The notes: generated from the letters alone by a model not told the origin. Numbered from the stretch's first letter, positions 2 through 2,149 are shown. The stretch is DNA of 64,000 nucleotides from Pseudomonadota bacterium (GCA_036687665.1 JAYYZZ010000003.1:68129-132128), one strand, 5' to 3'. Numbers and translations: made by a program.

Positions 2-124
2 AACAATAAACATAATGATTTGTTAGCCTATATCAATCGTTTATCAGATTTGCTGTTCGTGTATTGTAGAAAAATCGCAGCGGCAGATTTAGTGGAAGAG
101 AAATACTGGAATCCGTCTATTTAA
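2..124 (+). CDS. 3' end of ATP:cob(I)alamin adenosyltransferase (PduO-type), partial
   Basis: Open frame entering from the window edge, ending TAA at 122..124. Translation is ...LLAYINRLSDLLFVYCRKIAAADLVEEKYWNPSI*; the YINRLSDLLF block is typical of the C-terminal helix of PduO/MMAB-type adenosyltransferases. Only 40 codons are visible. Confidence 0.45.
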   Translation, partial: NNKHNDLLAYINRLSDLLFVYCRKIAAADLVEEKYWNPSI

Positions 125-892
125 TTTTCGTTGTTCCTATAATCACCTCTGCATCTAGAAGTTTCTTGAAAATTGTTCGCCCGCCTTCCACTATTGATTG
201 GTCATTTGTTTTTTTAAGTATTATGGCCATTTCTTTTAAAATTTCCTCACCTGTTTTCTTTTTCTCTTCATGTATTTTTTCTAGCAAAAGAGCAGAGTAG
301 AGATTTATTTCTACAAAATATACTTTTCCATCACTACGTCTATTCACTATAAGATTTGTTGGTTCTTTTTGTATTTCTTTTAAATCAAAATCTTTACTTA
401 TTTTGTGCACAGCGTAGTTGTAGCGTAATAATTTAGCTAATGGTGAAATAACAGGTATGCCGTTATATAAATCGCCGACAGGATCTATTTTGCTCATGTC
501 AACTTGTTCATTAGAGATTAATAATTCCAATTCTATATATTCATAGTGCGCAAGCTCTAATAAAAAGACGGGATCGTTTTCTTGGAATTTGTACTCATTT
601 TGCAAATAGCTTAGGAATTCCTTGGCAATGTTATAAAAAAAAGGGCTTTTGCAATTGTGAGAGGCGTAAAATAGTTTTATTTTCTTTTCCCATTCTATTG
701 GGGTATATAGGCTACGTAAGACAGGGTAAGTTTTATTAATAAAGCCACTTATATTTTTAAAAAAAAGTTTACGATAAATCTCAAGACGCCTCTCTTCGAC
801 TCCGCTAGGAGGCGGAACATTGTCAGGATCTCTTAAATGTGCAGAGAAAGCATGCTGTATATCTTGAAAATTTAAATTTTTTTTTTAGTCAT
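117..892 (-). CDS. DUF2063 RiPP-maturation partner (HvfC/BufC/MbnC-like); reading frame interrupted at an A10 tract near the 5' end
   Basis: The frame is open from 884 to the stop at 117 (255 codons). The N-terminal part reads KKNLNFQDIQHAFSAHLRDPDNVPPPSGVEERRLEIYRKLFF..., and the C-terminal part reads ...PVFLLELAHYEYIELEL.... Both fit the DUF2063 pattern. The first 93 codons contain no ATG, GTG or TTG; the ORF track only picks up a TTG at 605. An ATG at 892..890 overlaps the upstream stop (ATGA) but lies in another frame. One extra A in the A10 run (886..877) would join the two frames. Confidence 0.7.
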
Positions 893-1719
893 TGTTGTGC
901 TTGGGCTTGATACTTTTTTATTGTACTAACTTCAGTTAATAAATCTGTGATTGGCGGGAAATTAAAGTCTCTCTCTAGTAAAGTGGGAATAGGTCCAAAT
1001 TCTTTGTATGCGTGTTTAAGCAAATTCCAAACAGGTTCTATAACATTTGCCCCATGCGTATCGACGATAAGATCCGTATCTTCTTGTGAATGTCCAGCAA
1101 TATGCATGTACGCAATTTTGTCTCTTGGTAGTCCTTCTAAATAGTGCAAAGGGTCATATTTATGATTTATAGAGTTTACATAAACATTATTGATATCAAG
1201 AAGCAGCATACATCCTGATTCCTCAAGTATTCCATTCAAAAAATCTAGCTCACTGATTTCTTGACCGGGAGAGGCGTAATATGAAACGTTCTCTATTGCT
1301 ATTTTGCGTTCTAAAATATTTTGTGTGTCTTGAATCCTGGATGCTACATACTTAATGGCATCATTGGTAAATGGAATTGGCATCAAATCATACAGATGGC
1401 CTGCGTCTGAGCAGTAACTCAAGTGTTCTGTGTAAAAAGCAATATGATGTAAATCAAGAAATTTTTTTATTTTTTCAAGTAAAACATAATCTAATGGAGC
1501 TGGACTACCCAATGACAATGAAAGGCCATGAGTGACAAATGGAAATTTTTCTGTAAATGTATGTAAACGCTGCCCGATAGAACCGCCTACATCTATCCAG
1601 TTCTCTGGCGCTATTTCCATGAAATCTACATTTTTAGGTGTAGTGTTTTCCAAATCATCTATGATATCTCTGCGCAAGCCTAAGCCCGCGCCGCGTATAG
1701 CCGCTAAATTATTGCTCAT
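889..1719 (-). CDS. Multinuclear non-heme iron oxidase (MNIO, DUF692; MbnB/HvfB/BufB-like)
   Basis: 276 aa with the TIM-barrel DUF692 pattern: GLGLRRD...DFMEIAPENW, FPFVTHGLSLSLGS, YTEHLSY, IENVSYY, LLDINNVYVNS, YMHIAGH. Located 30 nt downstream of the Cys-repeat precursor gene and coupled to the DUF2063 gene. Confidence 0.85.
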   Translation of the reverse strand: MSNNLAAIRGAGLGLRRDIIDDLENTTPKNVDFMEIAPENWIDVGGSIGQRLHTFTEKFPFVTHGLSLSLGSPAPLDYVLLEKIKKFLDLHHIAFYTEHLSYCSDAGHLYDLMPIPFTNDAIKYVASRIQDTQNILERKIAIENVSYYASPGQEISELDFLNGILEESGCMLLLDINNVYVNSINHKYDPLHYLEGLPRDKIAYMHIAGHSQEDTDLIVDTHGANVIEPVWNLLKHAYKEFGPIPTLLERDFNFPPITDLLTEVSTIKKYQAQAQQ

Positions 1720-1749: not shown

Positions 1750-2082
1750 TTAGTTGCCGCACGTGCCTTCGCCGCACTTACCTTCACCATCTTTACCTTC
1801 GCCGCACTTACCTTCGCCGCACTTACCTTCGCCGCACTTACCTTCATCATTTTTGTTTTCGCTAGCTTTAGCTCCGCCACAGCCGCACTTACCTTCATCA
1901 TGTTTTTCATCATGTGTTTTCTCATCTTTTTTCTTATGAGAGCCTGCGACCATATAGCCAGAAGATAGTTCCTTCATTGTAAAGGGGTCTTCATGGGCGT
2001 TTACTGCTTGAGAGGTTGTCATTGTTATCGCTACTGTACCTATAGCTATAGCGAGGGGTGTCAGTCTTTCTTTTTTTGCCAT
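1750..2082 (-). CDS. Secreted Cys-repeat RiPP precursor (EGKCG-repeat, HvfA/oxazolin-like)
   Basis: AGGAG lies 7 nt upstream of the ATG at 2082. The Sec signal peptide is MAKKERLTPLAIAIGTVAITMTTSQAVNA|HEDP. A His/Lys/Asp/Glu-rich spacer follows. The C-terminal core is EGKCGCGG...DEGKCGEGKCGEGKCGEGKDGEGKCGEGTCGN, with 7 Cys. The track ORF starts 18 nt earlier at 2100, but the SD favours 2082. Confidence 0.8.
   Translation of the reverse strand: MAKKERLTPLAIAIGTVAITMTTSQAVNAHEDPFTMKELSSGYMVAGSHKKKDEKTHDEKHDEGKCGCGGAKASENKNDEGKCGEGKCGEGKCGEGKDGEGKCGEGTCGN
1756..1845 (-). repeat. Six tandem 15-bp units encoding the EG(K/T)(C/D)G pentapeptides
   Basis: On the plus strand, GCCGCACTTACCTTC is exact at 1771, 1801, 1816 and 1831, with a fifth exact copy at 1882..1896. 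Variant units are at 1756 (EGTCG) and 1786 (EGKDG). Confidence 0.95.
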
Positions 2083-2149
2083 CACCAAATCTCCTAACAT
2101 TTTTAATGTAAATATTAAGTTATCAATATACTCTATTTTTTTTTGTTGT

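Follow-up and report, generated by a model that had tools for sequence, protein, structure and literature searches.

We found that hvfC, the partner gene in the HvfABC-type RiPP metallophore operon of a streamlined (~1 Mb) pelagic marine gammaproteobacterium without detectable mismatch repair, is thrown out of register with its start codon by an A10 homopolymer, and that this A10 allele is almost certainly genuine and fixed in the sampled population. With about even confidence, we read hvfC as a fixed hypomorphic allele, which would be translated only after slippage on the tract and kept under purifying selection through its residual expression.

Reading frames at the hvfB-hvfC junction

The window, which is the whole 64,000-nt stretch of DNA analysed here, contains three co-oriented genes that HMM matches assign to an HvfABC-type operon in the order hvfA-hvfB-hvfC (Table 1). 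The precursor gene hvfA matches NF050137 (KCGExKCG; 32.4 bits, cut-off 19.5); its ORF begins at ATG 2100, and ATG 2082, preceded by AGGAG, is the likelier start. The maturase gene hvfB matches PF05114 (341 bits) and NF003818 (420.8 bits, cut-off 360). The hvfC frame covers NF050145 completely (264.8 bits, cut-off 142, profile positions 1-237 of 237) and also matches PF09836 (76 bits) and PF22106 (72.7 bits), with HvfC_N/DUF2063 at residues 9-94 and HvfC_C at residues 147-242, so that the MNIO and DUF2063 identities proposed in a preliminary description of this DNA hold. Genome-wide search returned this one HvfC homologue and no paralogue, and no DoxX (hvfX) gene was found within the operon. 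The hvfC gene has both the HMM match of its family (NF050145) and the expected neighbourhood of hvfB and an EGKCG precursor, and it lacks a continuous start-to-stop ORF. At its other end, hvfC and a convergent cobalamin adenosyltransferase gene share 8 nt at their 3' ends (window 117-124, with the hvfC stop TAG at 119..117).

On the minus strand the junction reads ...CAACA ATG ACT AAAAAAAAAA TTT AAA TTTTCAAGAT, and the hvfB stop TGA at 891..889 shares bases with the hvfC ATG at 892..890. No Shine-Dalgarno sequence was seen 5' of this ATG when the sequence was read directly. Translation from the ATG yields MTKKKI, 6 codons, and then the TAA at 874..872. The hvfC frame, in which a TAA at 887..885 stands just before the opening at 884, contains no ATG, GTG or TTG for 93 codons, the first being the TTG at 605..603. 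One extra A, or a -1 slip, gives a continuous 258-aa protein (MTKKKNLNF...) that begins MTKKKNLNFQDIQH, and a predicted peptide of the HvfC N-terminal region (residues 1-93) in this lineage is NLNFQDIQHAFSAHLR. Every element of the preliminary description of these frames was confirmed on the minus strand by translation. The A10 tract is the sole place where transcriptional slippage or ribosome sliding can restore the hvfC frame.

Table 1. Features of the hvfABC operon and of the hvfB-hvfC junction (window coordinates).
Feature	Position	Strand	Basis or remark
hvfA, secreted EGKCG-repeat RiPP precursor	1750..2100	-	ORF and NF050137
hvfB, MNIO maturase, 276 aa	889..1719	-	PF05114 and NF003818
Ancestral hvfC start codon, ATG in ATGA	890..892	-	Sequence; in-frame start of S1 and S2
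A10 homopolymer, hvfC codons 3-6	877..886	-	Sequence; frameshift site
TAA ending the ATG frame	872..874	-	Translation
hvfC reading frame, 255 codons and TAG	117..884	-	ORF scan, HMMs
TTG, first canonical start in the hvfC frame	603..605	-	93 codons in; heads a 162-aa ORF

The A10 allele and its relatives

Independent assemblies of the locus from the window's lineage (hereafter W) were fetched through exact-protein look-ups. Tara Oceans samples are among them, together with samples from one study (four), a second study (two) and several more, and with another NCBI MAG, one JGI metagenome and assemblies of five Logan runs, and the metagenomes span different oceans, depths and years. W contigs from ~21 distinct assemblies, belonging to at least 8 studies, all read ATGACT-A10-TTTAAAT. 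Gene callers reported the 162-aa ORF from TTG 605 in every case, and a homology search of 5.8 billion protein clusters (a 15-billion-protein collection) found no in-frame W-type HvfC, only the 162-aa fragment. The preliminary description had offered a homopolymer sequencing error as one explanation, to be recognised by A11 in other sequencing; because ~21 independent assemblies all carry A10, such an error is excluded. A true tract of A11 or A8, misread in sequencing or assembly, can practically be dismissed: homopolymers are error-prone on some platforms and the genome itself comes from a metagenome assembly, but the tract is the same whichever study, sample or assembler an assembly comes from, the same pipelines give other tracts (A8 and G+A10) for the sister lineages, and elsewhere in the genome there are no homopolymer-linked frame breaks. 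In one W contig (L031, ERZ23495620 scaffold_6461) the cobalamin adenosyltransferase gene and cysG are both cut short by premature stops, and there are several singleton changes; this is either a low-coverage contig prone to error or a strain in decay.

Comparison of tract length across relatives, which the preliminary description had called for, identified two sister lineages, both found in metagenomes only and both in frame. In S1 (2 contigs, mutually identical) ATGACT is followed by A8, and hvfC encodes 257 aa, MTKKNLIFQDIQ... (MTKKNL...). In S2 (7 contigs, identical 7/7) it is followed by G+A10 (11 nt), and hvfC encodes 258 aa, MTEKKNLNFQDIQ... (MTEKKNL...). The W tract would need one more base to reach the 11-nt state of S2 and is two bases longer than the A8 of S1; tract lengths in the three related lineages are thus 8, 10 and 11 nt, and the in-frame states are 3 nt apart. 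Because S1 and S2 both begin at the same ATGA, the ATG at 892..890 is the ancestral hvfC start, predicted to be translationally coupled to the hvfB stop, and 606..884 is coding. This bears out the view that the one plausible start of hvfC lies in another frame than the gene, and the alternative that orthologues start elsewhere and leave 606..884 untranslated falls, since both sisters translate this segment from the ATGA. The comparison suggests that over evolutionary time the length of the tract performs a random walk that includes out-of-frame states; such intermediates would be easier to survive if slippage buffers them.

Among the hvfB-hvfC junctions of 79 diverse orthologues, an NTGA overlap was found in 26, the hvfC start lay -35 to +16 nt from the hvfB stop in about 70, and a homopolymer occurred at none. 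Judged from these junctions, ATGA or near-overlap coupling is the norm of the HvfC family, and the tract is peculiar to the small W/S1/S2 clade. No close relative was found among genome contigs, where the best HvfB identity was 60%. In an unrelated gammaproteobacterial MAG (L142, JAURHQ010000108.1, coverage ~3x) the hvfC ATG (MSEPEFIQLQR...) is seemingly out of register with the long downstream frame, which may reflect a further frameshift or an error due to low coverage.

Substitutions were assigned by parsimony to three branches (W, S1 and S2), of which the W branch is long (dS ~0.3). On this branch dN/dS is 0.154 for the whole of hvfC and likewise 0.154 for both the start-less N-terminal 93 codons and the C-terminal 162 codons, compared with 0.159 and 0.148 for the neighbouring cobAT and ahpC and 0.068 for hvfB, all of these values being taken over a long branch, the greater part of which may lie before the frameshift. 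Of the residues that 63 HvfC homologues share without exception, W keeps all (28/28), and at columns conserved in at least 90% it deviates at 6 of 57, compared with 8 and 7 in the intact sisters. Its NF050145 score is also the highest of the three (264.8 bits against 263.9 and 260.0). Neither stops nor indels were found inside the hvfC frame in 21 W contigs, and no polymorphism was found in the N-terminal 93 codons among W contigs.

The W population consists of two haplotypes, W1 and W2 (13 and 7 assemblies), which are 8 of 1,603 nt apart and both A10, and its diversity is ~0.1-0.5%. The frameshift is accordingly older than the W1/W2 split, though it need not be much older. Between the haplotypes hvfC differs by three non-synonymous changes and one synonymous change and hvfB by one and three (Fisher P-value ~0.5, non-significant); the three non-synonymous changes in hvfC sit at positions that vary within the family. 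Counted over all W contigs, which are very similar and give a test no power, hvfC has 2 synonymous and 3-4 non-synonymous sites and hvfB has 4 and 1. The haplotype ratio in hvfC leans towards relaxed constraint without reaching significance.

The hvfA gene is intact across all W contigs, and its repeat number differs between them. Around the EGKCG repeat region (window 1750-1900) the lengths are 116, 115 and 111 aa in W and 103-108 aa in S2, and the differences include a 15-nt indel (loci L028, L060 and L043-L046). They reflect either repeat-number variation or assembly collapse of perfect 15-bp repeats.

Mismatch repair, homopolymers and frameshifts in the genome

The assembly comprises 918 kb in 4 contigs, with 38% G+C and 86% completeness, and has no relative in the same family. 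Profile models gave no match to mutS or mutL in the genome. In the same order, mutS is present in every genome of 1.4-2.5 Mb and absent from all those of ~1 Mb, and mutL and mutS are likewise undetected in all of the ~1 Mb genomes. Because the absence of mutS follows this division between small and larger genomes, the loss of mismatch repair looks real. When mismatch repair is lost, single-base indels in homopolymers become much more frequent, and the increase is proportional to the length of the run (PMC5854121).

Across the whole genome, 6-9-nt homopolymers occur 2.4-4 times as often as an iid model predicts, whereas there is a single tract of at least 10 nt, the A10 of hvfC, against ~10.7 expected. 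This depletion suggests selection against slippage-prone runs after the loss of mismatch repair. A genome scan for A8 and A9 tracts between two long ORFs returned ordinary gene junctions in all cases. Among 1,043 long ORFs, the only non-antisense ones with a start-less open stretch of at least 45 codons are hvfC and infC, and every other ORF with a long start-less stretch is an antisense shadow. The infC gene (IF3; C2:149746-150346, plus strand, outside the window) starts with ATC, 6 nt after GGAGGA, the classical autoregulatory non-AUG start. The hvfC gene is the only frameshifted gene found in the genome, and because the case is isolated, neither general assembly error nor genome-wide pseudogenisation explains it. 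For tRNA-Lys, only Lys(CTT) was found, which in an assembly that is 86% complete is uninformative.

Possible explanations of the out-of-frame hvfC

If hvfC is a leaky, hypomorphic allele, ribosomes coupled from the hvfB stop would initiate at ATG 892 and, unshifted, would stop after MTKKKI. Full-length HvfC would arise by two routes, either through RNA polymerase adding one A while copying A10 or through the ribosome slipping -1 on A_AAA_AAA, both of which would be generic, unprogrammed behaviour of tracts of 9-11 A. Expression of hvfC would then amount to a fraction of that of hvfB, which would make the gene a hypomorph and not a dead gene, and this residual expression would maintain purifying selection on it. 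Runs of 9-11 A or T are described as sites of RNA polymerase slippage in bacteria (PMC6260861, PMC5009743), the examples being lacZ A11, Shigella spa13 A10, Buchnera mur genes A10 and Thermus dnaX. In frameshifted endosymbiont genes ~30% of transcripts are full-length (PMC3017870). On this analogy some full-length HvfC would be hard to avoid, and we infer both that slippage takes place in this organism and that the resulting amount of HvfC is functionally sufficient.

The requirement for the protein bears on the same question. In Haemophilus, HvfB cannot modify HvfA without HvfC, a strict requirement (PMC11252979; bioRxiv 10.64898/2026.07.17.739211), and the activity of HvfB scales with the amount of HvfC bound, a 1:1 fusion being the most active form (bioRxiv 10.64898/2026.07.17.739211). 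Given this requirement and the single HvfC homologue in the genome, the pathway would be disabled if hvfC were left untranslated. The W operon resembles the HvfABC/oxazolin (Buf_EGKCG) system of nontypeable Haemophilus influenzae (PMC11252979; bioRxiv 10.64898/2026.07.17.739211; PMC12452194) in its combination of a signal-peptide EGKCG precursor with HvfB and HvfC, in its NCBIfam equivalog matches and in the predicted translational coupling of the partner gene to the MNIO gene. It lacks DoxX (hvfX), unlike most Buf_EGKCG clusters, and its hvfC is out of frame with its start, while in the characterised H. influenzae system activity scales with the amount of the HvfBC complex.

The closest likeness is to the poly(A) frameshifts of Buchnera and Blochmannia. 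These (PMC3017870, PMC5009743) are single-base indels in A tracts of at least 9 nt in otherwise intact genes of AT-rich reduced genomes, they are kept across geographically separate populations with no detectable degradation, and the genes show no raised evolutionary rate compared with others. The same features are seen in W: a single indel (A10, compared with A8 and G+A10) in an otherwise intact gene, retained without degradation in ~21 assemblies and two haplotypes. The W-branch dN/dS of hvfC equals that of the neighbouring cobAT and ahpC, but much of this branch may be older than the shift. However, W comes from open-ocean water-column metagenomes and not from insects; its genome contains one case, compared with 8-11 per Blochmannia genome, and otherwise avoids tracts of at least 10 nt; and the shift lies at codons 3-6 after a coupled start, whereas endosymbiont shifts lie in the gene body, slippage in W being presumed. 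A second group comprises the Shigella type III genes mxiE (T9) and spa13 (A10) and Thermus dnaX (A9), which share with W a coding run of 9-10 A or T and in which RNA polymerase slippage joins two frames with no need of RNA structure (PMC6260861, PMC5009743). In those genes the out-of-frame layout is conserved and used for regulation or for two products, whereas the relatives of W are in frame and the unshifted W product is a 6-residue peptide of no evident use.

Two points temper the hypomorph reading. The frameshift is absent from the sister lineages, which counts against it, and the intact ORF is a weak discriminator because the W population is shallow and the frameshift may barely predate the haplotype split. 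If HvfC is made by slippage, the buffering of frameshifts by polymerase infidelity, a phenomenon of insect endosymbionts, would also operate in a marine lineage that is abundant and free-living, and in a pathway for a natural product, and annotation pipelines would be wrongly truncating or discarding such genes.

A less probable but still credible explanation is that a 1-nt contraction of the tract recently inactivated hvfC, and hence the hvfABC pathway, leaving a young and undecayed pseudogene for which any slippage product is irrelevant, spread by drift or by hitch-hiking in a recent genome-wide sweep. Gene loss in reduced genomes classically begins with an indel in a homopolymer (PMC3017870), and since mismatch repair genes were not found, tract mutations should be frequent. 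The shift is specific to W, at the low diversity of the W population decay is not yet expected, so that a very recent null allele would show the same intact frame, and the excess of non-synonymous differences between the haplotypes points the same way. Against a null allele stand the lack of erosion in 21 contigs and two haplotypes and the intact state of hvfA and hvfB, with hvfB polymorphism mostly synonymous. Furthermore, given so mutable a tract and the size of an ocean population, A11 or A8 revertants would be expected constantly, yet A10 is the consensus everywhere, which fits a useless gene and a sufficient A10 equally well, and on such a tract some slippage product would physically be hard to avoid. 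If the allele is a fresh null, the first step in the loss of a metallophore pathway would have been caught in a streamlined ocean genome, with intact sisters for comparison. The case in addition connects the loss of mismatch repair with genome-wide avoidance of homopolymers of at least 10 nt.

We regard as doubtful a stronger form of the hypomorph reading, in which selection would hold the tract at exactly A10 and the homopolymer would act as an attenuator or bet-hedging valve on maturation of the copper-binding RiPP. If the indel-to-substitution rate ratio is taken as 100-1000, a plausible range, the probability of zero tract change is ~0.6 to 0.007, and the stability of the tract against its expected mutability is no more than a suggestion of such selection. 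If it is so, hvfC would stand as the first example of such a slippage-dependent gene that does not come from an endosymbiont, a pathogen or a mobile element, and long homopolymers would be purged after mismatch-repair loss except where slippage is used.

Phase variation, also named in the preliminary description, is unlikely. It would switch hvfC between OFF (A10, A9) and ON (A11, A8) through replication slippage, with an ON minority hidden by consensus assemblies. The tract is mutable and lies in the 5' coding region, neither mutS nor mutL was found, a loss that raises homopolymer indels (PMC5854121), and the three lengths with in-frame states 3 nt apart imply out-of-frame intermediates. However, at the consensus level all W assemblies are OFF (21/21, both haplotypes) and an ON state was not seen among them, no ON W-type protein occurs in the 15-billion-protein collection, and within each sister lineage the contigs do not vary. 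True contingency loci normally display both states among isolates. With the contingency loci of Neisseria, Haemophilus and Campylobacter (PMC5084427) W shares a mutable mononucleotide run that sets the frame early in the coding sequence and varies in length among relatives. It differs from them in the lack of ON/OFF polymorphism within the lineage, in its poly(A) tract, since contingency loci are more usually poly(G/C), and in belonging to a free-living ocean bacterium and not to a host-adapted pathogen.

The preliminary description had further proposed programmed slippage or -1 frameshifting that tunes the ratio of partner to enzyme. Unprogrammed slippage is retained above as a candidate, whereas a dedicated signal, evolved to fix a low HvfC:HvfB ratio, is very improbable because there is no structure, no SD-like element and no conservation of the arrangement. 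A_AAA_AAA is indeed a correctly phased slippery heptamer in the ATG frame, the zero-frame stop lies one codon past the tract, and tract length is invariant in the W population despite its expected hypermutability. But the fold of 900..790 reveals no downstream RNA structure (z = 0.19), no SD-like or GGAG-like motif occurs in the 20 nt upstream, the out-of-frame layout is found neither in S1 and S2 nor, as a homopolymer, at any of the 79 junctions, and the scaling of HvfB activity with HvfC argues against a benefit of scarce HvfC.

Other ways of producing an HvfC protein were considered and rejected. A fusion of HvfB to HvfC by frameshifting would need readthrough of TGA 891..889, and the hvfC frame has TAA at 887..885. 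The only near-cognate codon near the HvfC N-terminus, ATA (Ile9), corresponds to a conserved Ile in the sisters, which are in frame, and lacks an SD sequence. The TTG at 605 is probably not a real start: both sisters have TTA at that codon, the AAGGA 13 nt upstream is poorly spaced, and the 162-aa ORF would lose the whole conserved N-terminal domain, which shows the same constraint as the rest. The synonymous change from the TTA of the sisters to TTG at 603-605 is specific to W and created the only canonical start of the frame, probably by coincidence.
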